From: Verrucomicrobiota bacterium
Lineage (GTDB): Bacteria > Verrucomicrobiota > Lentisphaeria > Victivallales > UBA1829
Assembly: GCA_022703965.1 (NCBI GenBank)
Contig: JAKJHH010000002.1
Coordinates: 1 to 43,870, forward strand
DNA: 43,870 nucleotides
Direction: 5' to 3'
Both the position numbers and the translations under genes were made by a program. Below the pieces are notes generated by a model. The model was not told the origin of the DNA. It saw only the letters and a list, made by a program, of their open reading frames with translations, and ran no database searches. Positions 1,441-43,870 of this stretch are shown here, piece by piece (the stretch's first letter is position 1; each line of letters begins with the position of its first letter).

Positions 1441-4400
1441 CTACTCTGCAAATATCATCTTGCCGAACTGAGATGAATCCCTTATAGAGCCGATACCTGA
1501 ACTCCATTGCAGCCAGCCCTTGCGCCCTTTTCCGTCATTATCGTTGATGAGCAGTGAAAAACCGCATTCTTTTCCGGCTCTGATGGCAAAGGTCGGACAT
1601 ATCGCGCTCTGTTTTATGGCGACTTCATAAACAGTGATTTCTCCGCTCCTCAGAACTTTTGCGCTCACCCCGGCCGGATTCGCTCCCATTCGATATTCGG
1701 AAACTATGTCTTCAGTAGGAATCGTTGTATAGCGGAAGACAGCTGTTTTATCATCCACCAGACAAACTCCGAATTGAGTGGAAGGAGAAGCTTTATGCTT
1801 CATATCAGGATCAAAATCAAACTGTATGGAGTCATGTTGCCACATGGGAAATCCTTCGAGTCCGGAAGATTTGATATTATCTTTCACCTTTACGGCAAGA
1901 TATATTGTATCGTCATTCCAGGCGCTGGCAAATTCGGCACTTATATCGTCCTTGCCCGCGTAGTCGTTTATAACGGAGTCTTCCACTTTTGTGAATTTGA
2001 TATTTGCCCAATCATCCAGTTTTCCGTCAAGCACGATTTTTGCGTTATTCGCTGCGTTTACAAGATAAAGCTGTCTGTTCAGCGGCATACCGGAATGAAT
2101 TCTTATCATTTCAGCCGAAGCTATTTCGAGCACCCCTTTGCTTTTGTATTCATAGAAATGCACAGTCAGATTCGCAGCATTGGCGGGAGCCGTCCATTCG
2201 GCTTCTAAAGTCTTCCAGTCCGATGCAAGCTCTCCGTTTACAAAGTTATTGAGCTCTCCCAGCTTTTTTCCGGATGCGTCACTCACAACAAACATGACTC
2301 TGAACAAGCCCTGTCCGCGAGCTTTTACTTTGAAGTAATAACGCGAGCCGGGAATAACTTTAAGTGGATGAATATTCCTCAGCGCTCCAGTTCCGTCAGT
2401 AACAAGCTTCACGGAAGCTCCTTCATTGAAATTGAGCTCAGAATCACCCCATTTTACCCATTCTTGCGTATTAAACGGCGGAATCATATTTTTCCCTGCC
2501 GGAATGCTGGATACTGTCACAGGAAAACTTCCGGAGACCGGAACATTCATATCCGCGCTGCTTATCAATCCCTCGGTTTTCACCGTATAGGACGCATCGT
2601 TAAGCGACGGCTTAAGCGGAACTGAGACAAGCTTGCTTTCTCCGGGCTTGAGTTTTATTTCAGAGATTTCTGCTGAGGATATGGCGGAGAAATCTGCCTT
2701 TAGCGATGCGCTTTGCAAATTCTTTCCTGTCCCGAGGGAAAATTCCACATCCAGATTTTTCCCCGGCTGAACATCCTGAGATTTTATGTTTGTATGCAGA
2801 GAGGTTCCAAGCAGGAGCGCATTGATATCGCACCCTGTGATCATAACAGGATCTTTACCCAATTCCAGCTTCAATACTCCGCTTTCTGCTGCAAGTTTTC
2901 TGCTGTTATCCATAAGATCTATGAGATTGATTTCGGGATTTTTTACAAATAACCGTACATTCTCAAGCTTATCTCCGCGATTCACAAGCAGAACTATGTA
3001 ATCGCCTCCGTTTTCTACTGCTCTTGCAGGAGAAAAATACTTGTATGCATAAGCCTCTATGCCTGGAGCCGGACTGAAACTCGTGAAATATTCGGCTCCG
3101 GTAAAACGATTGACAAGAGTTTTGCTGACGGAATAAGTATATTTCGGAGTGTCATCAGGCCCGATCTGCCCCCAGCTTCTCCATGTGCTGCCCGTCAAGA
3201 TGAAGTTATATATTCTCAGCACTCCGTTGGCGTTTCCGTATATATAATTGCGTATAAGATTACGGGCGGCCTCGCGTCGTGTCTCTTCATCAACCTGACC
3301 TAAAGTGCCGCAGGAATCGCAACGTGTCTCGTTATTTAGAAGCCCCATGTTTCTTCCGACTTTATCAAGCTGACGGTTTATGATGCTTATTCTGTCGTCA
3401 TCCATATAGTGATCAGCCGTATAATCTATGTACTTTCCAACGCCGAGCTGATAAAGTCTTATTATAAAATCAGACTGACGCGCCCAGACAGTTTCGGCAA
3501 CTATCTTTATATTCGGTGCGACTTTCCTGATAGATTCCGAAGCTGTTTTTATAAGCTCAAAATACTGTTCAGCTGTCCCTTCGTGCCAGTATACGGATTG
3601 TTCCGACGGCTCATTCCATATTTCTATCTCCCGGATCTTGTCCTTATATCTTGAGGCTATCAATGCACAGACCTCTCCCCATTTTTTCATATCTTGAGGA
3701 ACAACATTATAAAGCTCCCATATATGTTTAAACTTGCGTTCAGGCTGATACTTCTTTGTCATCCATTCCGGTGTTCCGAGTATGCAAAGCTGTATACGAA
3801 TGCGGTCTTGCAGTTCCTTATCTATGACATCATCATAGTATTTCCAACGGAACTGTCCTTCTTCTTTTTCCAGAAACTGCCAATCTATCGGAAGAATACG
3901 TTCATGATGAATCTGCAATATACGCCGGAAATTCCTGTAATTATCCTGACGTTCATAGTCATTATATTCATAAGGATCGAAAAGATGTCCCGGAGATATG
4001 CCGCAAAGTCCTATGAAACTTTTATCTATTTCCTCTTCAGTCAAAGGAGCAATCATACGTACAGCGGCTATCCTGTTTTCAATGACAGATTGTCCCATCT
4101 GCAAAACTACCGGAACATTATCTTTTTTCAGTCTGGCTCTGACTCTGTAATGTCCGCTTTCGGATGACGGACAGCGCAATTCAAGAACAGCTTTTCCCTG
4201 ACTGTCCGGCTTGATTTCGCAGTCATTTGAACTGACAGTTTTATCAAAGTAATTAACAAATTCAACAGAAGCCATATATTTTGAATTCTTCTCAAGATTG
4301 TAAAATGATACAATAACAGAGGCAGGCTCTTTCACATTATATGCACTTCTCCACATGAAACCTTTGGCCGGACTGATTTCCGCAACGGGATTTTCAGGAA

Positions 4401-5037
4401 CAGGGCCTGCGGCGCTGTCAAGCGATATATAATCAAACAGATAGCAACGTCCGTAAGTTCTTCCGGATGTCTCATTGAGCTTGATTTGGTTTTCACCTTT
4501 CTGCGCCTGAAAGTTTATTCTAATTATGCACGGCCCATGTTTTTCCATATATTTTTCGAGGTCATAAGGCAGATATTCGTGATGGACAGTTCCATCGGGC
4601 AACGCTATTCTAAGAGAGGGACGCAACCAGTCATTTCCGTCAATATCCATATTAGGATTGGGAGAAAGACGATGGCTGTTAAACGCTCCTGGAGCCTTAG
4701 GCATAAGGCGGATTTCAAAAGTTCTCCACGCAGCCTCTTTTTCCTGCCAGATGATATTCTGTTCCCGCACCAGACTGTTGTTGGCCGAATTTCCTCCTGA
4801 AATTCCTCCCGGCATTGCGGGTTTCTCTATCAGTTTATTCTCCGGAATCTGATATGTGAATGAAAACTTTGCGCGATCATATGCTTTATTCTTGAGGATT
4901 TCGGGACTTGTCTTGAATTCGGCACTGCGATACGTTATAAATTCCTTATCGGAGTCATCTTTTATGCCAAGCTGCCATATATTTTCAGCTCCTGCATTTA
5001 CAGCAAATAGAATCATGATAAAAGCAAAAAATCTCAT
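1441..5037 (-). CDS. Secreted multi-domain glycoside hydrolase (clan GH-A TIM barrel, family unassigned) with a CBM4_9-like module and a C-terminal CBM9/DOMON-like module
   Basis: Signal peptide MRFFAFIMILFAVNAGA. The TIM-barrel region carries the acid/base-type motif IREIEIWNEPSE and a GTPEW segment. The C-terminal region DGKLDDWANIKF...AWNDDTIYLAVKVKDN...HDSIQFDFDP resembles CBM9-like domains. A GGAGA RBS precedes the ATG at 5037. Confidence 0.6.
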   Translation of the reverse strand: MRFFAFIMILFAVNAGAENIWQLGIKDDSDKEFITYRSAEFKTSPEILKNKAYDRAKFSFTYQIPENKLIEKPAMPGGISGGNSANNSLVREQNIIWQEKEAAWRTFEIRLMPKAPGAFNSHRLSPNPNMDIDGNDWLRPSLRIALPDGTVHHEYLPYDLEKYMEKHGPCIIRINFQAQKGENQIKLNETSGRTYGRCYLFDYISLDSAAGPVPENPVAEISPAKGFMWRSAYNVKEPASVIVSFYNLEKNSKYMASVEFVNYFDKTVSSNDCEIKPDSQGKAVLELRCPSSESGHYRVRARLKKDNVPVVLQMGQSVIENRIAAVRMIAPLTEEEIDKSFIGLCGISPGHLFDPYEYNDYERQDNYRNFRRILQIHHERILPIDWQFLEKEEGQFRWKYYDDVIDKELQDRIRIQLCILGTPEWMTKKYQPERKFKHIWELYNVVPQDMKKWGEVCALIASRYKDKIREIEIWNEPSEQSVYWHEGTAEQYFELIKTASESIRKVAPNIKIVAETVWARQSDFIIRLYQLGVGKYIDYTADHYMDDDRISIINRQLDKVGRNMGLLNNETRCDSCGTLGQVDEETRREAARNLIRNYIYGNANGVLRIYNFILTGSTWRSWGQIGPDDTPKYTYSVSKTLVNRFTGAEYFTSFSPAPGIEAYAYKYFSPARAVENGGDYIVLLVNRGDKLENVRLFVKNPEINLIDLMDNSRKLAAESGVLKLELGKDPVMITGCDINALLLGTSLHTNIKSQDVQPGKNLDVEFSLGTGKNLQSASLKADFSAISSAEISEIKLKPGESKLVSVPLKPSLNDASYTVKTEGLISSADMNVPVSGSFPVTVSSIPAGKNMIPPFNTQEWVKWGDSELNFNEGASVKLVTDGTGALRNIHPLKVIPGSRYYFKVKARGQGLFRVMFVVSDASGKKLGELNNFVNGELASDWKTLEAEWTAPANAANLTVHFYEYKSKGVLEIASAEMIRIHSGMPLNRQLYLVNAANNAKIVLDGKLDDWANIKFTKVEDSVINDYAGKDDISAEFASAWNDDTIYLAVKVKDNIKSSGLEGFPMWQHDSIQFDFDPDMKHKASPSTQFGVCLVDDKTAVFRYTTIPTEDIVSEYRMGANPAGVSAKVLRSGEITVYEVAIKQSAICPTFAIRAGKECGFSLLINDNDGKGRKGWLQWSSGIGSIRDSSQFGKMIFAE

Positions 5038-5081
5038 AGTTTTCTCCGGGTGGCTATTCTTCTATTTAAGGGTTGGAGTCA

Positions 5082-5750: not shown

Positions 5751-6746
5751 TCAGCTATTGAGTTTCATCGTGCTTTTTCTTGGAGTTAAGCTACACTCAA
5801 GAAGCTCCGGACTCACATCCCGTCCTTGAATAAGGTTTATAAGCATTCTTACCGATACTTTTCCTAATTTTTTTGTAGGTTGATGTATGGACGTAACAGG
5901 AGTTTCGAGATTTTCCAATTCATTACTTTCTTCAAATGAAATAAGCGAGATATCATCAGGAACACATAAACCCATTCTGCGTAATTCCATCAAAAATTTC
6001 AGGGTCAGAGTACTATTAAGCGATAAGATCGCAGTAGGACGGACAGGCATGTTAACAAGCTCTGAGACAGCACTTGTAACGGACAAGTCTATATCGTCAT
6101 AACTTTTCATCCATATCGATTCCGAATCTCCACCATTCTCTCTGATAATAGAAAAGAACCCCTCTATTCTATTTTTGTGTCCGTAGTCACCCTGATGTCC
6201 TGAAATTATGCCTATATTCCGATGCCCCATGCTCCACAAATATGATGCGGCATCACGCCCGGCTTTAAAACTGTCAGTACGCACGTTATTTGCGGGAATG
6301 GATGGCATGTTGCCTATGAATACTTTTGGAATCTCAAGTTTCTCAATTGAAAGCGAAAGATCGTGCATCTGAGCCAATTCCTGAACGATCAGCCCCTTAA
6401 GTGAAAATTTCTTGATGATATCCTGAATATATCCAAGAGAAAGCCGACTGGGCGTGACAGGGATAATCTGAGCAATCATTCCTTCGGCGGTAAGAGTTTC
6501 CAATATTCCCGTAAGCAGAGTGCTTGTGTAATCCTGCACCATAAAATCCTTGTAGATCAGCATCACGATACCTACACAATCGGGAGTTGTGGAGTAGTGA
6601 TTGCTACTGAAGCCCATTTCGGCAACAATTTTTTCAACGGTTTTTACGGTCTCGGAGCTGTGACCTCCCTTGCCGTTCAATATTCTTGAGACGGTTGCCG
6701 AACTCAAGCCAGCCCGCTTTGCAACTTCTTTTACTATCGCAGACAT
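5751..6746 (-). CDS. LacI-family transcriptional regulator
   Basis: The N-terminal HTH is VKEVAKRAGLSSATVSRILNGKG, followed by a periplasmic-binding-protein-like sugar-binding fold of typical length (331 aa). Confidence 0.85.
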   Translation of the reverse strand: MSAIVKEVAKRAGLSSATVSRILNGKGGHSSETVKTVEKIVAEMGFSSNHYSTTPDCVGIVMLIYKDFMVQDYTSTLLTGILETLTAEGMIAQIIPVTPSRLSLGYIQDIIKKFSLKGLIVQELAQMHDLSLSIEKLEIPKVFIGNMPSIPANNVRTDSFKAGRDAASYLWSMGHRNIGIISGHQGDYGHKNRIEGFFSIIRENGGDSESIWMKSYDDIDLSVTSAVSELVNMPVRPTAILSLNSTLTLKFLMELRRMGLCVPDDISLISFEESNELENLETPVTSIHQPTKKLGKVSVRMLINLIQGRDVSPELLECSLTPRKSTMKLNS

Positions 6747-7707: not shown

Positions 7708-8745
7708 TCATAACGCTGGCGATGCAGTGGACTCTCTGAGGACAAGAGAGACAGGATGAAACTCGTCTGTCGAGGCGACCTTTTTTCCGGCACGGATTTC
7801 AATGATTCTCCGGACAGCGGCTGCTCCCATTTCACGGTAAGGCTGTTTAACGGTCGTCAGCCCGGGGTTGCTGTAGGCTGCCATCATCATTTCGCCGAAC
7901 CCGATTACAGATACTTTTTCAGGAATGGAAATGTCGCGCTGCTGCAAGACTTTCATCAGGTTCATCGCAAGCATATCAGTCACGCAGAAAAAGGCTGTCG
8001 GGAAAGGCTTGCCGGAAAGAAGCAGACTGTCAATAGCAGAGGATATCTTCTCGTCGCTTCCGCCATTGATAAGATGCTCAGGCAAGACATCAAGTCCGTG
8101 TTTCTTCATTGCCTTGATAAAACCGTTCTCTCGCATAAGCGGGAAGAGTTCAGGATTCTGCGAGCCGCCCATCCATTCACGACTCAACACCGCAATGCGG
8201 CGATGTCCGAGTCCGACAAGATGATCCACCGCCATCGCCGCTCCGGATTCGTCGTCCGAAATAATCCTGCGGACTTCAGGATGAACCGAGCTTGAGGCAT
8301 CTACGGAAACAAGAGGGATTCCCTCGGCGCTGCAACGTTTAAAAATATAATCGGTATGTTCATTGTCCGCAGACTGCATGATAAAGCCCATCGGCCTCTG
8401 CCTCAGTGCCGAATCCACCGCTTTTCTGTAGTCATCGACAAGAGTCCACGGAATGATGTGCATAAGAATTTCCTGCCTGTCTGCCTCCAGTGCGGCACCT
8501 TCAACGTACCACGACACGAACTGAGGCCAAATCAAGGGAGCCGCATATGAAATGACTTTTGCGTAACCTCTCTTCATTGAACGTGCGGATTCATTCGGAA
8601 TGTATCCGAGTTTCGAGGCTGCATCCAGAACCTTCTGAGCGGTCTCCGGACTTATCCTCATTTTCTCGCTACGCCCTTTTAGCACGTGCGAAACGGTTGC
8701 TCTGCTGAGCCCTATTGATTCAGCGATATCATCAAGTGTAGGCAT
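7708..8745 (-). CDS. LacI-family transcriptional regulator
   Basis: The N-terminal HTH is LDDIAESIGLSRATVSHVLKGR, followed by a sugar-binding domain. The ATG is only 3 nt after the GH2 stop codon, so the gene is probably co-transcribed with it. Confidence 0.85.
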   Translation of the reverse strand: MPTLDDIAESIGLSRATVSHVLKGRSEKMRISPETAQKVLDAASKLGYIPNESARSMKRGYAKVISYAAPLIWPQFVSWYVEGAALEADRQEILMHIIPWTLVDDYRKAVDSALRQRPMGFIMQSADNEHTDYIFKRCSAEGIPLVSVDASSSVHPEVRRIISDDESGAAMAVDHLVGLGHRRIAVLSREWMGGSQNPELFPLMRENGFIKAMKKHGLDVLPEHLINGGSDEKISSAIDSLLLSGKPFPTAFFCVTDMLAMNLMKVLQQRDISIPEKVSVIGFGEMMMAAYSNPGLTTVKQPYREMGAAAVRRIIEIRAGKKVASTDEFHPVSLVLRESTASPAL

Positions 8746-8748
8746 GAT

Positions 8749-11700
8749 TCAGTTTTTCCTGATTTTTTCCAGACTTATTCCGGCAATCGCGAGCGAAGCG
8801 TCGGAGATGGATTCTATTCTAATTGAAACCACAAGTTTGCGAGGCTCCGGATTCTTGAGCTTCCAACACCATATTACGGCATCCTGACGGGATGGAGTTC
8901 TGCCTGTCCATGCGCAAACTCCCTTTTCGATATCTCTGTAGTACTGATAGCCATCAAGCTCGACTCCGGCTTTTATAACTGCATTTGAACTTGTTCCGTC
9001 CGCATAAATGAATTTCACATTAGCGGCCTCGCTTCCGGCCGGAAGCATATTCGAAAGAGCTCCGAGCATCAGAAGAGACTCACAGAGGCTGTTGATCTTG
9101 AGATTTATGCTTTCAGTTTTTGCCAGCACGATGCAGGACTTGCCTGAGTTCTTAGCCGGATCTGTCATCTTGAAGTCGAATCCTGCGTAATTCACAGCTT
9201 CCTCAGGGAACTTTTCGGGAGGCTGAGGCATGTTCAGCACAGGATCATTTCCTGTCACGTTGACCGGAAAATAACGCATGTCGTCTTTTGCGTTGCCGAA
9301 CCATCCCGGACGTGATATTTCAGGCCTGTGCCAGAAGTCACGATTCGCCGCCTTGCTGATATCCACAGGCACAGTTTCAGTCTCGGGACCTGCCGTAACC
9401 CTGCATCCGCTTCCCTTGAGCAGAGCCGCGATATATCTTGTTGAACGGACAGGATCTGTCAACGCCTGATCTTCCCAGAGAACAGAGCTGATAACGAGCT
9501 TTCCCTTACCGTAAGGAATCGAGATAAGGACAGCAGGCTCAAACGGAGATTCCACAGGCTCTCCCGATACCGTCATCTTATATTCAGCCATAAGAGGAGT
9601 CTTGATTTCTTTAGGGGTCTGCCCCTTCAGTTTTTTAATGAGCATGTCATAAATATCATAACCCTTCATCCAACAGAGATCGTCATTGGAAAGTCCGTCG
9701 GAAAGAGCTGACGCTTCCTTGCGGAGCACCTGCCTTAAAACTGCTTTTTCCAGCTTAATTTCACGTCCTGTCAGCTTGGACAGCAAGCCTGCGCTTTCAG
9801 GATTAATCCCGCTTATTATGACAGTCCTGCCACTCTCCGCAGCCTTGGCTATTTCATTTGAATTCAAGGTTTCTCTTCCGCTCAAAAGCAATACGTTTCC
9901 ATTTTCTTTTGCATATGCGATTCCAAGCTTATCAAGTGCGGCACGGACGCTTCCGGAACTGCTGTAAGGCTTGAGTTCTCTGGGTTGCCATTCCGCGCTC
10001 AAAGACTGGAGCAGAAGATTCAAAAGATACGGTGCCGAGGCATCCTTATGATATTCACTGGCAAGCGGAATCTGGCAGATAAGATAATAGCCGTTTCCGC
10101 GCGGCACTCTGATAAGAGGGCTGTGCGTGAGGCCGCCTTGTGAACCGCAATCCAGCAGGATATCCATGTCGGACAAATCGGGTTTGTACGCGCTGGAGAC
10201 TGAAACAAGCTTTTTCGAGCCCCATTCCTTCAACCAATCCTCATCAATCGAACTCAGAACTTTGTCGGTAAAATTTCTTTTGAAGGCAAAAGCCGCCTTG
10301 TGAGCCGCATCGAGTTTGAGCGGCATATTGCCCGATGCCTCCGCCTCCAGCCAAAGGACTTTCAGTCCGTTTCTGACTGCGGAATCTAAGAGAGCGGAAT
10401 CCTCTTTTGCAGGCTTCCAATTATATATCAGCAGCAATGACGGCTTGCTTTTCAATGCGTCTTTCAAACTGCTGTATTGTCCTGAGGTAAAATTCAGGCT
10501 GCCTGGGAAAGTTCCGTCTCCGCTCAAAAGAGCTGAATTAGCAGGAACTTTTACGTCCGTTTCGGGAAATATCCAAAAGTTTTTGACTGTTCTGCAAAGT
10601 TCTTCGCCACTGCTTTTTCTTTTAAGGATATGCACCTCAGTCCGCTTTTTAGGCTTATCTGTTGCCTTGTCTGAAAAGACAAGGATCATTTCCTTGAAGT
10701 CGCCCCCTTTAAGACGGAACTCCGCAGTTTTTCCTTTGTTTTCCAAACTGTCTTCACCAGTAGCCGAGCAAAGAACTAAATCCTCATCGGTAAAAGTCTG
10801 ATTGTAAATCTTCAAACGTTTTTCGATCAGCTGACCTGAATAGAAATTCGAGCCGTCCGGCACGCTGATATGAAACGACGGCATCAGCACACGATTTTTG
10901 AAAAGAGGATTTTCCTTTATTGTCTCTCCGCTTCCCCAGGGATTCCAAACTGAAACTCCGGCGTAATAATAGCCGTCGCAAAGCATTCTATAGGCATCAG
11001 CCCAGGCATCGTAAAAGCCCTTGTCAAGATCAAACGCCCTGTCGCCTGCCCATGAAGCCATTCCGTATGGAGGATTCAGCGAGTATGGCGGATAGAGATC
11101 TTCAGAAAGCATTATCGGCTTTTTCTGATCCCACGCGACTCCCTGCCATGGCTTCAAACCATCCGTCAGCCAGTAAGCAGTATTTGGCAGCATATTATGG
11201 ATCTTTGCAGGTTGCCATGCGTAGTGGAAGCTCAAAGCAGGCGCAGGCCCGTGCTCTCTGACGGCTCCTGATTCGACATCGCCCGAACATGTCCATATTC
11301 TTGTCGGATCGGCGGTTTCGACTTTTTTGCCGAGCTCACACATTTTCATATTGGCCTTGAACTTTTCCTCATCTGTTCCCTTCATGTATGTACCGGCAAA
11401 CTCATTGGAAAGCGCCCAGTAAATCACAGAGGGATTATTTTTGAAAGTCCCGACCATGCTGAGAAGATGCTTTTCAGCAGCAGTCCAGAATTCAGGCTCG
11501 ACTTCATTCGCTTTTGGAGAACAGAGGCCGCTTTCCGGACAAACGAGCCAACCTGCCTCGTCAGACTTGCGGATTATGCGGTATGAAGAGCCCAGATGCA
11601 GTCTGTAGCCGTTAAAGCCTCTTTCGCGAAGGAGCTTTATAGTTTCATCCATTGTCTCTTCTTTGTTCTGGTCGATATAGGCGAGCAAAGAACAACGGCG

Positions 11701-12609
11701 ATGCAGAAGCTTCATTCCATTCAAAAAGATGTCCGCCAATTGAACTTTGATTTCTCTGAAGCCGAAACGTTGACGGTAAAAATCAATAAGTTTTCCGCCC
11801 GAGCTGATCTTTATATCCATATAATATAGATTCGGAGAATCGGGTGTCCAAAGCTTAGGATTCGCCCACAAATCGTTCATCGCTATTTTACGGGACTCTC
11901 CTGACTTCAACTTGAGCTTCACAGGCTGATGCGAGAACTCTTTTCCGCATGAGGCTATGACTTCTATATCCTTTTCAGATGAACTGCCGTTCCTGACTGT
12001 GATCTCAGTTTTCAGTGCTTTGACGTCCCCGGCGGAGGGCTGAATGAAAACATCTTCAGTGTAAACTTCGCCCCTCGTTTCGACGTGAACCGGAAACGGA
12101 ATTCCGACAAACTGAGCGTAAAGCCAATTCATTCCTTCAGGGCGCTTCCCGCTTACATTGCGGGTTCCGTAAACCTTGACGACAAGACTGTTCGAGCCTT
12201 CCTTAACCCAGGCGCTTATATCAATCTTGAAGGGAAAATATCCGTCCTCCGATTCCCCCGCTCTCTGCCCGTTGACAAAGACTTCAGCTCTGTCTGTGAC
12301 TCTTTCAAAGGCGGCAAAAACTTTCTGCCCGCGGCTCTCCGTGAGATTGAAATCTTTGCGGAAATAAACACAATCCTTCTCCTTCGTAAAAAGAGAGGAA
12401 TGCTTGCCTGGAACTGGAGCCGGACGCCAGGAATCCTGCGGAATTTCCAGAGAGGACGGATGAGCCGGAGAAGCCTGCCATTCCCCCGAAAGATCAAGAG
12501 CTTTGCACGGCGCACTTATATGATCCGTAATAGCCTTGAAATCCTGAGCATGATTCATAATTGCAGACAAAACTAAAAAGCAGGATAATAATCCCTTTGC
12601 TGAAAGCAT
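8749..12609 (-). CDS. Secreted GH2-family glycoside hydrolase (beta-galactosidase/mannosidase/glucuronidase-like) with a long C-terminal extension
   Basis: Signal peptide MLSAKGLLSCFLVLSAIMNHAQ. GH2 sugar-binding domain VFAAFERVTDRAEVFVNGQRAGESEDGYFPFKIDIS. The TIM barrel starts FGFREIKV and carries WALSNEF (NE acid/base). About 650 aa follow, including GATase/GH42-domain-B-like stretches. A GGAGA RBS is present. Confidence 0.75.
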   Translation of the reverse strand: MLSAKGLLSCFLVLSAIMNHAQDFKAITDHISAPCKALDLSGEWQASPAHPSSLEIPQDSWRPAPVPGKHSSLFTKEKDCVYFRKDFNLTESRGQKVFAAFERVTDRAEVFVNGQRAGESEDGYFPFKIDISAWVKEGSNSLVVKVYGTRNVSGKRPEGMNWLYAQFVGIPFPVHVETRGEVYTEDVFIQPSAGDVKALKTEITVRNGSSSEKDIEVIASCGKEFSHQPVKLKLKSGESRKIAMNDLWANPKLWTPDSPNLYYMDIKISSGGKLIDFYRQRFGFREIKVQLADIFLNGMKLLHRRCSLLAYIDQNKEETMDETIKLLRERGFNGYRLHLGSSYRIIRKSDEAGWLVCPESGLCSPKANEVEPEFWTAAEKHLLSMVGTFKNNPSVIYWALSNEFAGTYMKGTDEEKFKANMKMCELGKKVETADPTRIWTCSGDVESGAVREHGPAPALSFHYAWQPAKIHNMLPNTAYWLTDGLKPWQGVAWDQKKPIMLSEDLYPPYSLNPPYGMASWAGDRAFDLDKGFYDAWADAYRMLCDGYYYAGVSVWNPWGSGETIKENPLFKNRVLMPSFHISVPDGSNFYSGQLIEKRLKIYNQTFTDEDLVLCSATGEDSLENKGKTAEFRLKGGDFKEMILVFSDKATDKPKKRTEVHILKRKSSGEELCRTVKNFWIFPETDVKVPANSALLSGDGTFPGSLNFTSGQYSSLKDALKSKPSLLLIYNWKPAKEDSALLDSAVRNGLKVLWLEAEASGNMPLKLDAAHKAAFAFKRNFTDKVLSSIDEDWLKEWGSKKLVSVSSAYKPDLSDMDILLDCGSQGGLTHSPLIRVPRGNGYYLICQIPLASEYHKDASAPYLLNLLLQSLSAEWQPRELKPYSSSGSVRAALDKLGIAYAKENGNVLLLSGRETLNSNEIAKAAESGRTVIISGINPESAGLLSKLTGREIKLEKAVLRQVLRKEASALSDGLSNDDLCWMKGYDIYDMLIKKLKGQTPKEIKTPLMAEYKMTVSGEPVESPFEPAVLISIPYGKGKLVISSVLWEDQALTDPVRSTRYIAALLKGSGCRVTAGPETETVPVDISKAANRDFWHRPEISRPGWFGNAKDDMRYFPVNVTGNDPVLNMPQPPEKFPEEAVNYAGFDFKMTDPAKNSGKSCIVLAKTESINLKINSLCESLLMLGALSNMLPAGSEAANVKFIYADGTSSNAVIKAGVELDGYQYYRDIEKGVCAWTGRTPSRQDAVIWCWKLKNPEPRKLVVSIRIESISDASLAIAGISLEKIRKN

Positions 12610-14429: not shown

Positions 14430-17400
14430 ATGAAAATACTGACAACGCTCCTCCTGTTTCTACCTTTACTTTTCTGTTCCGCCGCCGATCCGACTCCTTT
14501 TGCTGCATGGTCAATGGATGAGCTTTCGGGAGCAGTCGCTAAAGACAAATACGGCTCATATGACGGTATCATCACCGAAAAATGCATGCGCGTAGCGGGC
14601 AAATCGGGACAGGCCTTGCGCTTCGGTGACGAGCGTTCCTTTGTCTATGCTAAACTGCCGTGGAAAAACTCTTCATTCTCCTTCAGCGCATGGACAAAAG
14701 TGATTGCTTTCCCGGATAAGACGCAAGCCTCAATTTGCGGGTTCCCCGGCTGGAGTACCGACATCGGCGTAACAGCGTCCGGGAATTTTTATTTCGAGCT
14801 TTTTAACAAAGACAAACAGCAGTTTATGGCAGTCTCACCTGATTCTTATCCCCTGGGACAATGGCACTATGTCAGCGGTGTCTTTGATCTCGAAAACTCA
14901 AAACTCATGCTTTATATCGATGGAGAAAAACTCGCGGAAAAAGCATTCGCGGGAAGCCTTTTTCCATATCCTGACGATTTTTATATCGGATGCTCCAAGC
15001 CCACAAGTTTTGTAGTTCCTTACTGGTACAAGGGCGACATCGATGAAGTGGAAGTCTACAGAACAAAAATCTCAGGAGACTTCATAAAAAAGCGTTACCT
15101 TGAATTGAAGAACAAGGAAGTTCCAGCCGACAAAACAGTTTCTCACGTGGGAAAACATGGACAACCCCTATGGCTGACACCTCCATCTGAAACAGTTCAA
15201 GCGCTGACTGATGAGTTCAAAAAAATACTGAGTAAACAGTCTAAAAGCAACGCTGAACGCGAGCAGGATTCACGTGGAGTCCCTGTTCTGGAAATCAACG
15301 GCAAAATAACACCCTTTCTTGGAGTCGATCTCTTTGAGCGCAGACTTGAAGCAATCTATCTCCAGCCGTTCACGACAGCCGGAATGAAAATCGTCAATGT
15401 TTCCGTCAACATCGGAAGACCCTATGAATTTTCAGGCATGAAGCCCTACTGGAACGGGCCGGACTCGTATGATTTTTCCGATATCGAAAAACATATTCTG
15501 CGCCCTCTCCAAACTGATCCGTCTTGCAAGATTATCTTATGGGTTCAGATAGACCCGTACTGGAGCTGGCACGAAACACATCCTGACGATCTGATGAGAA
15601 ATGAACGCGGCGATGGCATGGTCGCGGAACAGCATTTTCAACGCTATGGGATTCCGGCAAATAAACGGGAAAGGCTGGTCTGGTCATTCTTCTCGGACAA
15701 ATTTCGTGATGAAATGTCCGAGACCCTCAAACGGCTAATAGCGGACATCGAAAAGAGTCCTGCGGGCAATTCAGTTGTCGGCTACCTGATAGGCGGTGGA
15801 ACAGATGCCCAGCTTTATCACTGGCAACCGCCGAATCATATCCTTTCAAAGCCGGAAAACTGGGGCGACTACAGCAAACCTGCACTGAAAGCATGGCGAG
15901 TCTGGCTCAAAGACAAATACGAATATACCAGCGAAATATCCAAAGCTTGGAACATGTCCGTCACAGACTTCGACAAGCTAAGTGCGCCATCGGCTTCAGC
16001 GCTTTGCGGCGGCTCATTTTTCCACGATCCCGCCAAAGAACGTCAGGCAATGGACTGGAAGCGTTTCATCACAGATGGACGCAGAAAACTCATATCGCAT
16101 TTTGCCGGACTTATCAAGAATAATGTTTCCGGTGATAAAATTGTCGGAATATGCTCAGGGGACAGCGGTTCACGTCGCGACCTGACAAGCATGGAGGAAT
16201 TCCTGCGTGACGACAATATTGATTTCTTCCTGCATCAGGCCACATACGGTCAGCGGCTGCCTCCGAATATCGGCGGAATCAATGCAAATCTGGCTTCGAT
16301 TGCAGTCAATGAAAAACTTTTCGTTGCTGACAGTGACCAGCCTACATGGTGCTCAAAACCGCACGGAAACATCAACGCAGGCGCAGGCATACATCATGAC
16401 GCGTCTTTCCACGGATGGGCAAAGGATATCGAAAGCTTACGCTCGATGTGGAGGCGTGACTTCGGCATGCTCTGGACTACAGGAGCCGGAGCACTCTGGA
16501 ATCCCGTTTTCGGCGATCTCTGGGCCTACTCCGACCAATCTATAATAGACGAATTGAAGTTCATTGTGGAAACATCCGCAAAAGTTAAAGCGCAGTCTCC
16601 TGAAAAACCACTTGCCGAACTGGCAGTAATCTATGACGAAAAAGCAGTGGATTACCTGAAAGGCGGACTCTCGCAAGCTCATTCACAATGGATTCGCATG
16701 CAGCAGAATGAACTTTATGCCTCAGGAGTGCCCTTCGGCGTATATTATCTTGCCGACCTGAAAGAAGGACTTGTGCCGCCCTCAAAACTCTACATCCTGC
16801 AAAACCTTATGAATCTGGATCGAGCCACCTGCAAAGCCCTTGAACGACTCAAGAAAAACGGTGCCACTCTTCTTTTCATGAACGATACCGGATACGAACA
16901 GTCTTTTACTGACATCAATACCGTTTTCAAGGCTACAGGAATTCACCTTGAGCGGGCAGACAGAGCAGATAATGTAAATCTGCCGCTGAATATGAAATCA
17001 TCCCTCACAAACTGGAACACTGACGTAAAAACAGCAAAATCTGGCATCAAATGGCCGACTGAAGCCACAATATACGGACCTTTCCCGAAAAATGCGCCCG
17101 AGCCGGATTATCTGTCCATGGCGACGGCTCCTTCGCTGCTCAAATGCGGAAATTTTCAGGCGGCATCACGCAAAATAGCCATTAATCCATCAGGAACAGA
17201 TATCGCCGCCGCCCTTTCAATACGTCCGGAAGAAGGATTGACCGCATATATCCTCATCAATTTTGAAAGCTCAAAAGCCGGAGAATTCCCCTTCGGTGCA
17301 TCGGCTGACTGGTGGATGAAATGGTGCTTGAACGGCAAAACCGTATATGATACCTACAGCTCAGGAAACGGCAAAGCGGGCTTTAATCTCGATACTCACA

Positions 17401-19904: not shown

Positions 19905-19909
19905 AAGAT

Positions 19910-35416: not shown

Positions 35417-35464
35417 AATCTTCGATAACACGAGGGAATAATAACAATACGAAAAGAGGAATTT

Positions 35465-36229: not shown

Positions 36230-36308
36230 TTCGCAATACATTAATATTGAGGCGGAATCTTATATTTGCCTTGCGCGATGCTATATTAGCGCCGAAAGCA
36301 CGAAACAA

Positions 36309-36472
36309 GGGAGCCTCTAAAAATTGACTTGAGAAAAAAAATCATGTATTGCGGCTTAAAGCCATGATTTTGCAAGTCATCGGCTAGCAGAGCTAACCGA
36401 TGCCGCGCAAGGTCGTGGCGCTTGCCGCAAGACAGAGTTTTGTTCCAAGTTTTTCAATTTTTAGAGGTTCCC
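36309..36472 (+). other. 164-nt inverted-repeat-bounded structured element (candidate cis-regulatory leader RNA or MITE/REP-like repeat)
   Basis: GGGAGCCTCTAAAAATTGA (36309-36327) pairs with TCAATTTTTAGAGGTTCCC (36454-36472), giving 19 bp with one G.U. The helix encloses three local hairpins (36340-36369, 36378-36402, 36405-36428). The element ends 14 nt before the AAGGAG RBS of the GH38 gene. Confidence 0.5.
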
Positions 36473-36499
36473 GCAATGCATAACGCAAGGAGATATAAG

Positions 36500-39669: not shown

Positions 39670-39704
39670 GGGGATGCGTTTGCAAAAGCGCATCCCCCTT
39701 TTTT
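39670..39704 (+). terminator. Rho-independent terminator after the GH38 gene
   Basis: GGGGATGCGTTT-gcaa-AAGCGCATCCCC forms a 12-bp stem whose lower 9 bp are GC-rich. TTTTTT follows at 39699-39704. The U-tract overlaps the stop codon of the convergent gene at 39703. Confidence 0.7.
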
Positions 39705-42700
39705 ATTTCAGCTCAAGACTTCCCCAGTTTGCCGGCGACGTCCAGTTCCCGGAATTACCTGCCCATACAATCGTTTTTCTTGAAGATTCCCCTGCAATAT
39801 CTGTATCCGTAGCCTGAAAACTCATAGGCAGCTTGAGGCCTTTGGAAGGACTGAAATCGCTCTTCAAGGATTTCCACGGAATAGCAGCTTCAAGCATATA
39901 TCCATACTTGAAGGCTTTTGAGGCTATTTTTATATCCGCATCTTTTTTCAGCTGACAGCACCATGCCGTAGCTTCTTTCTGAGTTCCTCCGGCAGGAGCC
40001 AGAAGCATCTGAAAATCTGTTTTACTCATCGCATTGACTTCTTTTGAAAGAGCCGCTCTTTTCGGACTTTCAGGGTCAAGGCCGAGGAAAAACTCTATCC
40101 CGTCCGAATCCCATGCGGAAGCCTGAGGCGCATGACGTTCCAACATGTTGTCATAAACAATTGCACCGAGATAGAGATTCGAGGAATCCCAGCGGAAACG
40201 CATCTCGCAGGAGAGATCAAGCGGACCGCTCCAGAGTTCACGTCCTTTCTGAACTTTTGAGGATGCCGAAGCACCGCAAACGCCTTCAGAAGTCCATTCG
40301 CCAAGATCTCCGTCAATAGTAATCGAAGATGGCGGAACCTCCATTGCAAACGCTTCTTTTGAGCTGGACAACACCGCTTTCAAATATGTTTCTGACGGAA
40401 AAGGAGGAATCGACAGCACAGCATCAAGTCCGTCAACAGACATCTTAAAAGACTGAGGAGCTTCCGAAACTTTCATTGAAAGAAGCGGAAATAAAGCAGC
40501 GCGCCGTTCCTCCGGATTTATCGTAAGATTCATGCCCGCCTTTTTAAACTGCCATCCTGAAGCCGCATTTTTGAGCTCGACCAGAGGATTCAGCACTTTA
40601 TTTGTCTTGTTGACTGCATATACGCCAAGGGCAGGATTTTCAGTATCATCCAGCTCCATGCCGCCGCTTACTGAAAAACGGTCGCCGTCAATATCCGCAT
40701 CACTCAGGAAGGAACGGACAGCCTTGAAATCAGCTACGTCAAAACAGAGGTAAACAGGAGCAGTATTCAAGCTGAGAATTCCGTTTTTATAAGCGTCGCA
40801 AGCTTCTCCGAAAAAGTTATAAACCGAGAAGCCCGGACCTTTTGCAGGAAGCTTCAGAGCGGATGCTTTTTCTGAATCCCACAGGGCGGCAAGTATTCCT
40901 TTTTCGCCCTCATAAAGCGCGACATATCTGCTTGAACCAAGCTTCATAAGTTCAACTGGATGATTGCGTCCCTCAAGCATTCTGGCGAGACCGTTTGCGG
41001 CAAGAAGTTCAGGACACGGCGAGCCGTCATACTCGATATGCTGAAGTCCGTAAGGACTGCGATGCGACATTATGTAAATATCATTCGGCATATTTCCGAA
41101 CCAGAAAAACGGACCTTTGCCCACCGAAGAATCAATGAGAGTTTCACGAATCAGAAATTCCGCCTTGGCTCGAAAATCAGGAACGCAAAAACCGGGCTCA
41201 TGTAAATAGGCTCCGGGCAAATTTATTTTCTCTGCGGAATAACCTGTAATTTTCGTATTGTGGCTCTTCTCTGTATGCCATACAGGAAGGACTTTGCCGT
41301 ATTGAGCCATAGCCGCTTGAAGGACAGCTATCATCTTGTCCGTTCCGTTTACAAGACTGCGCTCCGGAGCGACATTGCTGTACATATGAATGGACAGAAC
41401 ATCCATGCTGCGTCCTTTATCAAGCTCCAGAACACGTTTCGTCCAGGGAGCAGGTTCTCCGCCCCAGTCTGAAGTTGCGCACCCGCCTACTATTTTGCTC
41501 GATGAATCGACAGTTTTTGCCGCTTTTGAGGCTGATTCAAGATAAGGCAGATATTCTTCAGGACTTATCCAGCAATTGGGTTCATTCATTATTTCCCAGT
41601 ATTTTATTTTGCCTTTATAGCGTTCTGCCAGAGTCTTCACATAAAAAGACCAAGCTTCAAGCCTGGGAAAAGATACATCAAGAGCCCAGGAATTCTTTAC
41701 AGAGCTTTTTGCCACACGCTCAGTAGCCCATTCGGGAATAAACGCATTGCCGTTTTTGTCGTATGAGGCTCGGCCGAATCCGCTTCCAAGTATGGGCATG
41801 ATATTGAGTTTTGCGTCCTGACAGTTTTTCATCACTATGTCTGTCTCCTCAAAATTCAATTTCCCTTCCTCGGGACATGTTCTTTTAAATGTAAAATCCC
41901 AGCTCCTTGTCCAGCCGAAACCGAGCTTTCGGACAATCGGATTTCCATCTGCCGCATCACAGCCAAGAGCCCAGTCATCAGGCAGGAATCCATCGTATTC
42001 CATTGGCTGATAAACGCCGAAGATAAGCTCATCTGAAAGATTGGCATCCTTACTCTTAAAGTAAATCCTGTAATAACCGCAGGGGAGCTGAGGAATTTTC
42101 ATTGAGGACTTCAGATTGGACTCGGCCTGAATGGAAAAGTCCAGTTTCCCTTCGGCAAGATTCTTGTCCCAATAGTCCTTGATCAAATAGGAAATGGACA
42201 AGTCCGTTTTTTCTTTGGAGTTGTTCCGAAAGAATAGACTGATTTCCCCATTTTTCAGTTCAGATTTGCTGAAAAGCTTATGTTTCTGCTGTATCTGCGC
42301 ACCGAATTCCAGGGCTTCAGGCATATATTCTCCAAGCTCGCCCTCCTCAAGCTGCATGTTGTCAATCCAAAGTTTTCCTGAAGAAACAGCAGGATGTATT
42401 CCCGCCCATGTTTTACAGTAATTCAGTACATTAAATTTAGCGGGTTTGAACGTGTATGAATATCTTTTCCAATCCCTGCCAACATTGAAGCTGATACCGC
42501 TTGTGCCGTCCCAGCTGCCGTTTTCACGACAGTCAAGAGATGCTCTCATTGAATCCGAATCCGACTTCATCCATGCGGAAAGCGTATATGTCTTTTCAGG
42601 ATCAAGTTTAAGCGGACGCGACTCCACCATATTAAAGTTGAAGCGGCCTCGTTTAGCCTTGATATCCTCAGCCGTAATGAGCAGACTGTATTTTCCAGAG

Positions 42701-43575
42701 TAAGCGTCACTATCATCAAATGCCGGCTGAACGGCCGGACTTGTCCATGCTTCAGACCAACTGTAAACGGCAAGAGGATTGATTCCGTGAGGTCCTACCT
42801 CAAAACCTGAGCCTGCGCCAAGGAGATTTTTCTTTATAAGAACCTGTTTTGTCACCGAAGAAGCGGCAAGAGCCGGAAACTGTTCGCCTTTCTTCAAAAG
42901 AGCCATTTGGAAACTGAACTTGTCATCCTTGAGATTCATGTAAAGATGAAAATCCGTTTCAGGCTTGCCGTGATGACGGCAGTCGGCAATATTGTAGGAA
43001 ATATCAGAGGAAAGTACTTTGATTCCAAGCTCATTTTCTGCATCTATGGAAAAGCGGAATTCACCTGCGGCTTTGCCCTGATTCAAGATATAGTTTGTCC
43101 CTTTTTCCTCAGGGAAAGCCATTTTTTTCCCGTCGACAATAAACTCATGTCCGGCAAAAATTTTGACGGGAAGAAGAATTCGGTATTTCACATTTTCCTT
43201 GGCAGGAAATTCCAGCTCGCTTTTGTATGAGATATCAGCAATAACAGTTCCATTAACCTGTCTGTATGAAGTCTTGATAGATGCCTTGTATTCTTCGCAA
43301 TATGAATCCATCGCAACAGTTTTTGTCTCCTTATCAACAGCCGAGTTTTTTTCTTTAGGCAGCTTATAGCCTGGAAATATAGGGCCGACAAAAATAACAG
43401 AGTCGCCCGAAGGCATAGCAAGCTGCCAGCCTGAAGAATACTTTTTAGGTTCAAACTGAATGTTTGTAACTGTATCCGCAAAAAATCCGTTCGGACAGAA
43501 ACTCAGCTCGTTTGCGAAAGAGGAAATGGCAATACACAAAGCGGCCATCCCCAGTATGATCCGGGTTGATTTCAT
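39703..43575 (-). CDS. Secreted multi-domain glycoside hydrolase (clan GH-A TIM barrel) with a CBM4_9-like module and a C-terminal CBM9/DOMON-like module
   Basis: Signal peptide MKSTRIILGMAALCIAISSFA. CBM4_9-like segment YSLLITAEDIKAKRGRFNF...YTLSAWMKS...LWIDNMQLEEGE. TIM-barrel motif KIKYWEIMNEPN. The C-terminus DGDLGEWTSEG...RWDSSNLYLGAIVYDN...DSDGIEFFLGLDP is CBM9-like. The architecture matches 1441-5037. An AGGAGA RBS is present. Confidence 0.6.
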   Translation of the reverse strand: MKSTRIILGMAALCIAISSFANELSFCPNGFFADTVTNIQFEPKKYSSGWQLAMPSGDSVIFVGPIFPGYKLPKEKNSAVDKETKTVAMDSYCEEYKASIKTSYRQVNGTVIADISYKSELEFPAKENVKYRILLPVKIFAGHEFIVDGKKMAFPEEKGTNYILNQGKAAGEFRFSIDAENELGIKVLSSDISYNIADCRHHGKPETDFHLYMNLKDDKFSFQMALLKKGEQFPALAASSVTKQVLIKKNLLGAGSGFEVGPHGINPLAVYSWSEAWTSPAVQPAFDDSDAYSGKYSLLITAEDIKAKRGRFNFNMVESRPLKLDPEKTYTLSAWMKSDSDSMRASLDCRENGSWDGTSGISFNVGRDWKRYSYTFKPAKFNVLNYCKTWAGIHPAVSSGKLWIDNMQLEEGELGEYMPEALEFGAQIQQKHKLFSKSELKNGEISLFFRNNSKEKTDLSISYLIKDYWDKNLAEGKLDFSIQAESNLKSSMKIPQLPCGYYRIYFKSKDANLSDELIFGVYQPMEYDGFLPDDWALGCDAADGNPIVRKLGFGWTRSWDFTFKRTCPEEGKLNFEETDIVMKNCQDAKLNIMPILGSGFGRASYDKNGNAFIPEWATERVAKSSVKNSWALDVSFPRLEAWSFYVKTLAERYKGKIKYWEIMNEPNCWISPEEYLPYLESASKAAKTVDSSSKIVGGCATSDWGGEPAPWTKRVLELDKGRSMDVLSIHMYSNVAPERSLVNGTDKMIAVLQAAMAQYGKVLPVWHTEKSHNTKITGYSAEKINLPGAYLHEPGFCVPDFRAKAEFLIRETLIDSSVGKGPFFWFGNMPNDIYIMSHRSPYGLQHIEYDGSPCPELLAANGLARMLEGRNHPVELMKLGSSRYVALYEGEKGILAALWDSEKASALKLPAKGPGFSVYNFFGEACDAYKNGILSLNTAPVYLCFDVADFKAVRSFLSDADIDGDRFSVSGGMELDDTENPALGVYAVNKTNKVLNPLVELKNAASGWQFKKAGMNLTINPEERRAALFPLLSMKVSEAPQSFKMSVDGLDAVLSIPPFPSETYLKAVLSSSKEAFAMEVPPSSITIDGDLGEWTSEGVCGASASSKVQKGRELWSGPLDLSCEMRFRWDSSNLYLGAIVYDNMLERHAPQASAWDSDGIEFFLGLDPESPKRAALSKEVNAMSKTDFQMLLAPAGGTQKEATAWCCQLKKDADIKIASKAFKYGYMLEAAIPWKSLKSDFSPSKGLKLPMSFQATDTDIAGESSRKTIVWAGNSGNWTSPANWGSLELK

Positions 43576-43592
43576 TGATTTCTCCTTAACTG

Positions 43593-43870
43593 TTATCGAG
43601 GCAGGTAATCTTTATCGAAAATATTTGTGCCGGTGAATTTATATGCACTGACGTGTCCGTCCTTGAAAAGAAAATTCGCCTGCCGGGAGTGGAGATTCCA
43701 TCCGACAGCGTAAGCAGTAGCCGAACTCGGCCATGCATCCGTGTTAAGTGCAACAAGGTAACCAGTACAGGTGTTAACAATTGAGGCACTGATTCCATTA
43801 TAATCCTTCTCGCCCATAATAGCCGCACCATCTTTTATTCTGTCAAAGCGTCTGTATATTCCAGGAGCTG
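43593..43870 (-). CDS. Prepilin-type H-X9-DG family protein, C-terminal part (5' end lies outside the window)
   Basis: The frame stays open to the window edge. The C-terminus carries HSRQANFLFKDGHVSAY (H-X9-DG). The stop is 17 nt before the start of the 39703-43575 hydrolase. Confidence 0.8.
   Translation of the reverse strand, partial: APGIYRRFDRIKDGAAIMGEKDYNGISASIVNTCTGYLVALNTDAWPSSATAYAVGWNLHSRQANFLFKDGHVSAYKFTGTNIFDKDYLPR

Follow-up and report, generated by a model that had tools for sequence, protein, structure and literature searches.

Pilin-like DUF1559/H-X9-DG genes lie directly upstream of exported carbohydrate-active enzymes in gene units with sugar-type regulators in Lentisphaerota

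Why should a gene for a pilin-like protein stand just 5' of co-directional genes for giant exported glycoside hydrolases (GHs), five times within 44 kb? The question is raised by a 43,870-nt stretch of DNA (hereafter the window; positions 1 to 43,870 of the forward strand of contig JAKJHH010000002.1, GenBank assembly GCA_022703965.1) from a Verrucomicrobiota bacterium that GTDB places in the Lentisphaeria, order Victivallales, UBA1829. The contig is of a gut or sediment type. Its five pilin-like proteins, P1 to P5, belong to the DUF1559/H-X9-DG family, and its five exported carbohydrate-active enzymes (CAZymes) are named H1 to H5. DUF1559 is a large family of unknown function restricted to the Planctomycetes-Verrucomicrobia-Chlamydiae (PVC) superphylum (PMC10632474, PMC4807772, PMC2754498), and in Planctopirus limnophila it forms the largest paralogue group, with 68 paralogues of which two are essential (PMC10632474). 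It is among the largest protein families of unknown function, and we found no published function for it, in agreement with an earlier reading of the window made from its letters alone (the sequence-only reading).

We find that a sugar-type regulator, a pilin-like gene and one or more exported CAZyme genes form, in that order, a recurrent unit in Lentisphaerota. The adjacency is real, directional and enriched, and the enrichment of large downstream genes is specific to Lentisphaerota. This layout gives the DUF1559/H-X9-DG family a first testable role. It resembles a polysaccharide utilization locus (PUL) and can be used as such a unit to annotate Lentisphaerota genomes, where it predicts exported enzymes and the regulators in control of them.

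Five pilin-like genes precede exported CAZyme operons in the window

In all five units of the window, a pilin-like gene lies 12-44 nt 5' of a co-directional operon. Module 1, on the minus strand, consists of a LacI regulator (5751..6746; Pfam LacI and Peripla_BP_3/1) 12 nt 5' of P1 (5082..5738, 218 aa, with the leader MKTGKA in front of FTLIE), and, after a gap of 44 nt, H1 (1441..5037), a 1198 aa exported CAZyme with a signal peptide, a GH39/GH42-like TIM barrel and the carbohydrate-binding modules (CBMs) CBM4_9 and CBM9. Module 2, also on the minus strand, pairs P2 (12623..13405, 260 aa, with a degenerate H-X9-DG motif) across 13 nt with H2 (8749..12609), a 1286 aa exported GH2-family enzyme (Glyco_hydro_2_N, Glyco_hydro_2 and Glyco_hydro_2_C), and its LacI regulator (7708..8745) lies 3 nt 3' of H2. 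Module 3 is on the plus strand, where P3 (13715..14407, 230 aa) is separated by 22 nt from H3 (14430..17924), an exported enzyme of 1164 aa with a signal peptide, a Laminin_G_3 domain and a GH42-like TIM barrel. The minus-strand module 4 starts with an AraC regulator (24956..25807; HTH_18/HTH_AraC) 19 nt 5' of P4 (24241..24936, 231 aa, canonical H-X9-DG-H motif). In module 5 (minus strand), the P5 fragment (43593..43870) covers the last 91 residues of a pilin-like protein of 249 aa, carries the motif HSRQANFLFKDGH, and is followed after 17 nt by H5 (39703..43575), an exported enzyme of 1290 aa with a signal peptide, CBM4_9, a GH5/GH10-like core and CBM9; some homologs have PF00331 (GH10) hits. 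All domain assignments are from Pfam.

Module 4 is the only one in which the pilin-like gene and the exported enzyme are separated, by two minus-strand genes for cytoplasmic proteins without signal peptides: a GFO/IDH/MocA oxidoreductase (23203..24228), 12 nt 3' of P4, and a 622 aa protein (21338..23206) with a weak DSE-like_N/DUF4962 match, seen with Pfam and in the precomputed Pfam annotation of Logan contig L089. The exported CAZyme H4 (17937..21301, minus strand, ~1,120 aa; signal peptide, CBM4_9, GH42-like) has a frameshift near 19905, and its open reading frames (ORFs) 19910-21301 (463 aa) and 17937-19904 (655 aa) are in different frames, with the break at ~19895-19925. Because the TIM-barrel motif GINLVRLH reads across the break, we take H4 to be one gene with a frameshift or an assembly error. 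The same split is present in L089, which probably derives from the same sample and ends ~240 nt later; it could reflect a pseudogene, strain heterogeneity or misassembly. The sequence-only reading had placed one giant hydrolase in each module: five exported CAZymes are indeed there, apart from the division of H4 and its distance from P4. Its gene coordinates, strands and gaps (44, 13, 22, 12 and 17 nt after the pilin-like genes; 12, 3 and 19 nt at the regulators) were all correct.

The complete P5 gene was found together with its upstream regulator on the identical ENA contig L081 (5597-7371). Full-length P5 has 249 aa, with a leader ending in RFLN before the canonical helix, and its gene overlaps a GntR-family regulator gene by 4 nt. 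Regulators of the LacI, GntR or AraC type are therefore present in four of the five modules, one more than had been counted in the window.

All five hydrolases have signal-peptide-like N-termini, as judged by a heuristic, together with GH and CBM domains. No canonical lipobox was seen by eye and PEP-CTERM gave no Pfam hit, and a Pfam scan of the window ORFs found no SusC/D, TonB-receptor, ABC or MFS family, both as previously described. Every exported CAZyme of the window is in an operon with a pilin-like gene. The cytoplasmic GH38 alpha-mannosidase (36422-39655), which lacks both signal peptide and pilin-like gene, lies outside such operons and is an internal negative control.

Co-transcription of pilin-like gene and enzyme is plausible, given the 12-44 nt gaps, the junctions free of terminators and the promoter-like sites before P2 and P3. 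No terminator-like hairpin was found in any pilin-to-enzyme junction of the window. A strong bidirectional terminator-like hairpin (39670..39697; 12-bp stem with 7 GC pairs, then a T-run) lies at the end of both the H5 unit and the GH38 gene that converges on it. The two best sigma70-like sites of the first 20 kb, each matching 11/12 consensus positions, and identified by consensus match only, are both in the divergent region between P2 and P3 (13436..13677), one on the minus strand before P2 (13464..13436) and one on the plus strand before P3 (13650..13677). For P3, the start at 13715 is preferred over 13613, since the promoter-like site and a GAGGAG ribosome-binding site (RBS) lie upstream of 13715. 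A GGAG-type RBS had been claimed for every downstream start; that of the module 3 hydrolase is GGTGA. A search for LacI operator palindromes in the promoter regions gave nothing usable, only weak inverted repeats with 73-74% complementarity.

The pilin-like genes are enriched upstream of exported proteins in Lentisphaerota

We collected 80 loci from species-representative genomes with the family profile (35 Lentisphaerota, 30 Verrucomicrobiota, 8 Planctomycetota and 7 others), called ORFs in them and found 106 family members with a hidden Markov model. The counts that follow are to be read with four properties of this sample: the loci are ranked by similarity to P4, several come from the same metagenome-assembled genomes, the gene caller is simple, and the signal-peptide heuristic, which was checked first on the window proteins, is crude.

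Across all loci, 14/99 pilin-like genes and 25/687 other genes are followed, within 60 nt and on the same strand, by a gene of at least 700 aa (odds ratio (OR) 4.4, p=1e-4), and Lentisphaerota account for the whole of this signal, with 13/46 versus 13/308, a background of 4.2% (OR 8.9, p=1.7e-6). In the window, four of the five pilin-like genes have such a neighbor. There is no excess of large genes upstream (2/103 pilin-like versus 20/705 other genes). When the family label was shuffled among the genes within each locus, 3.45 +/- 1.66 adjacent pairs were expected in Lentisphaerota and 13 observed (p<5e-5). The sequence-only reading had proposed a narrower definition, a signal-peptide protein of at least 800 aa within 50 nt, and in Lentisphaerota this also holds up, with 8 cases against 1.55 +/- 1.11 in permuted order (p<5e-5).

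The direct downstream neighbor in Lentisphaerota is signal-peptide-like in 21/27 cases, versus 59/293 for other genes (OR 13.9, p=2e-9), and the direct upstream neighbor shows no such excess (7/27 versus 73/293). Because the signal-peptide excess is found downstream and is absent upstream, the association is with exported proteins and not with mere size.

An extension of the large-gene enrichment to all PVC phyla, as had been envisaged, is rejected: the counts are 1/33 versus 10/300 in Verrucomicrobiota and 0/9 versus 2/50 in Planctomycetota. A weak downstream signal-peptide signal remains in Verrucomicrobiota (p=0.036). The gene after DUF1559 in Verrucomicrobiota and Planctomycetota typically encodes 87-180 aa (for example in L026, L032, L039, L052, L070, L033, L072 and L009), and 10/10 of these small genes matched no Pfam family. 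This small-protein pairing may be a two-gene unit different from that of Lentisphaerota.

The neighboring genes encode sugar-type regulators and unrelated CAZymes

Twenty large downstream proteins from the surveyed loci were compared with Pfam. They include GH78, heparinase II/III-like proteins (3), GH123 (2) and DUF4838 (3, two with Glyco_hydro_67N), as well as CBM9- and CBM4_9-bearing, pectate-lyase-like and beta-helix proteins and one SSF transporter. Among the smaller downstream genes are a sulfatase, GH43, a polysaccharide lyase, a glucuronyl-esterase-like protein and GFO/IDH/MocA. The pattern is not a duplicated cassette, because the partners span unrelated families, namely GH2, GH39-like and GH42-like in the window and GH78, GH123 and others in the surveyed loci. 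Recent cassette duplication was also rejected for the five window modules, where the hydrolases share at best <=27% identity over 181 aa and the pilin-like proteins are 28-39% identical.

On the upstream side, 31 co-directional neighbors gave 14 Peripla_BP_3, 13 GntR helix-turn-helix (HTH), 2 LacI HTH, 1 AraC and 1 FCD match, so that ~17/31 are sugar-type regulators (GntR/LacI/AraC). The pilin-like gene is second in its directon in 20/42 cases, versus 54/268 for other genes. Tandem DUF1559 genes occur, and one operon can thus hold more than one pilin-like subunit; pairs were noted in several loci, including L004, L023, L026, L030, L037, L056 and L070, and locus L090 (210-10394) contains consecutive pilin-to-CBM9-enzyme modules.

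Could the adjacency be without functional meaning, a by-product of high copy number or cassette duplication? The family is huge, comprising 36,416 clusters (50% identity) at E<=1e-30 and 233,493 at E<=1e-10 by this profile among 1.84e9 representatives, the window alone has 5 copies in 44 kb, and the locus sample is biased toward relatives of the query, all of which would speak for chance. The within-locus permutation, the restriction of the effect to the downstream side, the non-homologous partners, and regulator-pilin-enzyme triads that are conserved amid different flanking genes all speak against it, and we regard this already disfavored explanation as very improbable.

The pilin-like proteins combine a conserved assembly helix with a variable head

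The PF07596 (DUF1559, SBP_bac_10) scores of P1 to P4 are 33.8, 28.3, 29.1 and 26.9 bits, all above the gathering threshold of 23.3, although they align only to profile positions 2-34 up to 2-61 of 268 and so represent a short variant. The 91 aa P5 fragment gave no PF07596 hit. All four also pass TIGR02532 (28.0, 30.9, 22.7 and 22.4; cut-off 16.3), and with PF07963 (N_methyl, cut-off 21.2) P1 (30.0) and P2 (32.5) pass, with P3 (20.8) and P4 (20.9) just below. They are not members of the GspG family TIGR01710, scoring 24-35 bits against a cut-off of 88.85 and only over the N-terminal profile positions 2-59, nor of the Verru_Chthon cassette families TIGR02596-02599, where weak N-terminal hits reach 21-25 bits against a cut-off of 70.

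The near-identical prepilin N-termini described for all five proteins were found in P1 to P4. The N terminus of P5 falls outside the window, and its canonical helix is seen on L081. Phe at +1, Glu at +5 and a hydrophobic helix of ~21 residues are present in P1 to P4 and in full-length P5. F1 and E5 are characteristic of subunits packed in type IV filaments. Both residues are invariant across sets of 20 and 60 homologs and the helix nearly so, and it is conserved nearly residue for residue between phyla.

At the other end of the protein, a C-terminal H-X9-DG-H motif is confirmed in four of the five proteins (P1, P3, P4 and P5). TIGR04294 (H-X9-DG-CTERM, cut-off 19) recognizes P4 (25.7) and P1 (19.3); in P3 and P5 the motif is visible by eye without a hit at E<=0.01. 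P2 reads N-X9-DG-G, with both motif histidines missing and the remaining fold signature kept, also without a TIGR04294 hit, and its C-terminal segment (12623-12760, minus strand) is a natural variant of the motif. Between their ends, the five proteins had resisted alignment by eye; they can in fact be aligned from end to end, with 28-39% identity. Head residues that vary little or not at all in both homolog sets include two Cys, one Tyr and one Trp, besides the His and Asp close to the motif, and a disulfide and a metal site may be built from the Cys, His and Asp.

AlphaFold2 modeled full-length P4 with a predicted local distance difference test score (pLDDT) of 84.7, and the head alone with a pLDDT of 93.5 and a predicted TM-score (pTM) of 0.90. 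In the model, a long helix leads into a compact alpha/beta head, whose final beta-hairpin is made by the H-X9-DG segment and turns at DG. Full-length P4 matched pilins in the PDB along the N-terminal helix only, and weakly (Foldseek, best E=0.67), and a profile search of PDB sequences matched type IV pilins and GspG over the first ~60 residues, again only the N-terminal helix. The pilin-like protein thus couples a near-invariant type-IV-pilin assembly helix to a variable, well-folded head.

Gene order is more conserved than the pilin-enzyme partnership

The sequence-only reading had proposed each paralog as a dedicated adaptor, tether or SusD-like subunit that recognizes only its neighboring CAZyme. 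The tight operonic pairing in the window favors such strict recognition, and there are precedents in TcpB-TcpF and CofB-CofJ (PMC9565799, PMC6048534). Pilin heads next to unrelated enzymes score 22 bits against each other in the median, and 47 bits at the 99th percentile, which is the background for the comparisons below.

H1 has only 7 homologs among 5.8e9 proteins. In locus L083, the whole triad is orthologous within different flanks (H1 57%, pilin 56%, with the head at 54% and 192 bits, LacI 60%). Locus L084 has the same gene order around an H1 ortholog (48%), yet its pilin head is unrelated to P1 (25 bits) and its regulator is 23% identical. Three H1 homologs at 45%, 37% and 35% identity have no adjacent pilin gene; the 37% homolog, in L086 (4529-8621), is preceded instead by a 149 aa LysM-domain protein, which may be an alternative small accessory protein of another lineage. 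Conversely, the pilin of L002 is 41% identical to P1 and precedes an unrelated GH78 without a signal peptide, followed by a 948 aa exported protein, in a unit with a GntR-type regulator.

The pilin gene adjoins the enzyme in 2/5 of the H1 homologs and 5/5 of the H5 homologs examined, in the latter four times upstream and once downstream. The downstream case is L092 (2898-8706), from the 7.4-Mb genome CP087563.1, where the order is inverted to LacI, H5 ortholog (45%), pilin, and the head scores 34 bits against P5. Heads of L091 and L093 match P5 with 162 and 103 bits, and L090, although it holds the closest H5 ortholog (50%), has an upstream pilin head of only 21 bits against P5.

Over six comparisons of orthologous hydrolases, the pilin head was therefore co-inherited in three (L083, L091 and L093), replaced in two (L084 and L090) and weakly related in one. 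In close relatives, simple vertical descent of the operon would also keep head and hydrolase together. The idea of a dedicated cognate partner is weakened, because pilin and enzyme are often inherited together but either can be replaced, and in its strict form, set against the swaps in L084, L090 and L002, the inverted L092 and the three H1 homologs without a pilin gene, we consider it quite unlikely. Gene order is more conserved than the pairing, and a strict one-to-one partnership is not kept, which leaves room for a looser preference.

A shared machine with operon-specific pilin-like subunits

What, then, might the pilin-like subunit do? Sequence alone does not separate an export adaptor, a tether and a SusD-like glycan binder. 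Our preferred reading, held tentatively and with less than even confidence, is that each operon supplies its own pseudopilin to a shared machine, related to the type II secretion system or the type IV pilus, which exports or displays the co-induced enzyme. A sugar signal would release the repressor, so that the exoenzyme and its own pilin-like subunit are made together. The subunit would enter the inner membrane through its N-terminal helix, and the shared machine would assemble it into a short fiber that pushes the co-induced enzyme, folded in the periplasm, across the outer membrane or keeps it displayed there. The variable head might bias the choice of cargo or substrate, with partnerships that are exchangeable over evolution. 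This reading draws on the family signatures and the conserved helix, the plausible co-transcription, the downstream enrichment with its link to export, the unrelated partner families, the sugar-type regulators, the synteny around H1 and H5 homologs, and the precedents of TcpB-TcpF, CofB-CofJ and the pullulanase secreton of Klebsiella oxytoca.

Several observations weigh against this proposal. Genes for a secretin, ATPase, platform protein or prepilin peptidase were found neither in the window (Pfam) nor among the scanned Lentisphaerota neighbors. The P4 head matched no pilin or pseudopilin head in the PDB (Foldseek, best E=0.65, TM<=0.15). The gene that directly follows the pilin gene encodes a cytoplasmic protein in module 4 and in L002, and the enzymes could be periplasmic rather than secreted. 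A further objection concerns the residue at position -1 of the prepilin cleavage site. This residue is A, A, P, R and N in P1 to P5 (window sites 5720-5738, 13385-13405, 13715-13745 and 24895-24936, with P5 read from L081 6622-6655). In the Lentisphaerota loci (from L001-L080) it is Gly in 4/46, never Ala and otherwise almost any residue, and among 241 close relatives it is Gly in 11 and Ala in 22 (33/241 Gly or Ala). In model systems, Gly (rarely Ala) at -1 is required for cleavage by the prepilin peptidase, and Strom and Lory reportedly found that other residues block it, so fiber assembly is not assured.

By comparison, all of the Verrucomicrobiota (35/35) and Planctomycetota (7/7) copies have Gly or Ala at -1. 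The Gly/Ala(-1) determinant is lost from the DUF1559 proteins of Lentisphaerota, in which F1 and E5 remain invariant. Either the Lentisphaerota prepilin peptidase would have a relaxed specificity, or these proteins would go unprocessed; the loss implies that the peptidase has acquired a new specificity or that the pilin fold now serves to anchor the protein in the membrane. The second option is a rival in its own right, in which the protein is no fiber subunit but an uncleaved, inner-membrane-anchored periplasmic protein, such as an escort or holdase for the large enzyme, or its gene is a leader that targets the polycistronic mRNA to the translocon. The essentially random -1 residue in Lentisphaerota, the dissimilarity of the head to known pilin heads, and a position directly 5' of exported genes that is kept without conserved partnerships would all suit it. 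A plain anchor, however, would have no need of a conserved helix with invariant F1 and E5, which serve processing, methylation and packing of pilins, and pure mRNA targeting is hard to reconcile with a head that is folded, conserved and invariant in Cys, His and Asp residues. We therefore rate the uncleaved anchor as improbable.

Another rival is a glycan-capture or uptake fiber. Here, substrate-induced surface subunits would bind the polysaccharide and bring it to the cell or periplasm, as an analog of a PUL independent of TonB and SusCD, with the giant enzymes acting at the surface or in the periplasm. Planctomycete pili-like fibers bind gold-labeled dextran, which is later internalized (PMC5394234), and the Lentisphaerae strains WC36 and zth2 are without ExbB, which energizes the TonB system (PMC11361711), as the window is without SusC/D or a TonB receptor. 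The heads are variable and well folded, the operons are under sugar-sensing regulators, and the pilins of module 4 and L002 precede cytoplasmic sugar-processing enzymes, which suits a link to the substrate over a link to a single cargo. The strongest statistical signal, on the other hand, is that of signal-peptide proteins directly downstream (OR 14), and in L084 and L090 orthologous hydrolases, presumably with the same substrate, are accompanied by unrelated pilin heads. Foldseek against the PDB revealed no lectin- or CBM-like fold for the head, there is no retraction ATPase in evidence, and the difficulty with the -1 residue applies equally. On balance, a capture fiber seems unlikely to us.

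A broader proposal, which we offer as speculation of doubtful standing, would make DUF1559/H-X9-DG proteins the missing accessory component of polysaccharide utilization in PVC bacteria without SusC/D or TonB. Each glycan-inducible operon would bring its own pilin subunit and so re-tool a shared secretion or retraction machine, either as a cargo-selecting piston or display fiber for the giant CAZyme or as a glycan-specific retractile fiber that feeds it, and the Lentisphaerota peptidase would no longer need Gly(-1).

Other genes of the window

The region 33440-39655 is a cytoplasmic mannoside-type cluster without a pilin-like gene, made up of an AraC regulator, a Zn-dependent dehydrogenase, a xylose-isomerase-like TIM barrel (35465-36229, plus strand) and the GH38 enzyme. 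At the start of the window (1-1412, plus strand), a FliP-like C terminus, a FliQ-like gene and a FliR-like gene (Bac_export_1, 615-1412) abut H1; in Lentisphaerae strain WC36, flagella are absent, yet flagellar genes are induced on laminarin (PMC13526803). Between the LacI genes of modules 1 and 2 lies a gene (6916-7599, minus strand) for a multi-pass membrane protein of 227 aa that matches nothing in Pfam or NCBIfam, and the other multi-pass membrane proteins noted are the FliR-type export-gate protein and the product of a K+-channel-like gene (28757-29593).

Comparison with known systems

We found no published link between DUF1559/H-X9-DG proteins and CAZyme operons, with incomplete coverage of the literature, so a prior description is possible. 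Pilin or pseudopilin genes coupled to secreted cargo are known from other systems; in Lentisphaerota they stand in a PUL-like organization.

The DUF1559 swarms of Planctomycetota and Verrucomicrobiota have in common with the Lentisphaerota proteins the pilin helix, the LLPAL..AR motif, the C-terminal H-X9-DG and a very high copy number, whereas the Lentisphaerota copies are shorter, have no Gly/Ala(-1) and are enriched 5' of large exported CAZymes. Verru_Chthon cassettes (TIGR02596-02599) are likewise small conserved cassettes of PVC-specific pilin-like proteins, but they contain four genes and no CAZyme. The dextran-binding fibers (crateriform structures) of Planctomycetes offer a parallel in physiology, a PVC bacterium without SusC/D that internalizes fiber-bound polysaccharide (PMC5394234); those fibers may be linked to DUF1559.

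In TcpB-TcpF of Vibrio cholerae and CofB-CofJ of enterotoxigenic Escherichia coli, a minor pilin binds a secreted protein whose gene stands in the pilin's own operon, and recruits it for secretion that depends on the pilus (PMC9565799, PMC10120004, PMC6048534). Pilin and secreted protein share one operon there as here, but those systems have one pair per pilus operon, encoded with the whole machine, and their cargo is a small colonization factor and not a CAZyme. The partners described here are exchangeable.

SusC/D and the TonB machinery explain glycan use in Bacteroidota. Like the PULs of that phylum, the Lentisphaerota units combine, under substrate control, a regulator, exported or surface CAZymes and a non-catalytic accessory protein, and they occur many times per genome with varied enzymes. 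They differ in that the window has neither SusC nor SusD, the enzymes have no obvious lipobox, the accessory protein is pilin-like, and the regulators are of the LacI, GntR-periplasmic-binding-protein and AraC types rather than hybrid two-component or extracytoplasmic function (ECF)/anti-sigma systems.

In the pullulanase secreton of Klebsiella oxytoca, pulA adjoins pulC-O and is regulated by MalT. It resembles the Lentisphaerota units in the sugar-inducible co-expression of one or more pseudopilins with a glycoside hydrolase of more than 1,000 aa as the cargo to be moved across the outer membrane. The Pul system encodes its whole machine in cis (secretin, ATPase, platform, five pseudopilins and peptidase), whereas in the window each enzyme has a single pilin-like gene, an arrangement found five times over 44 kb without machine genes in its neighborhood, and the head is of the DUF1559/H-X9-DG type in place of GspG.

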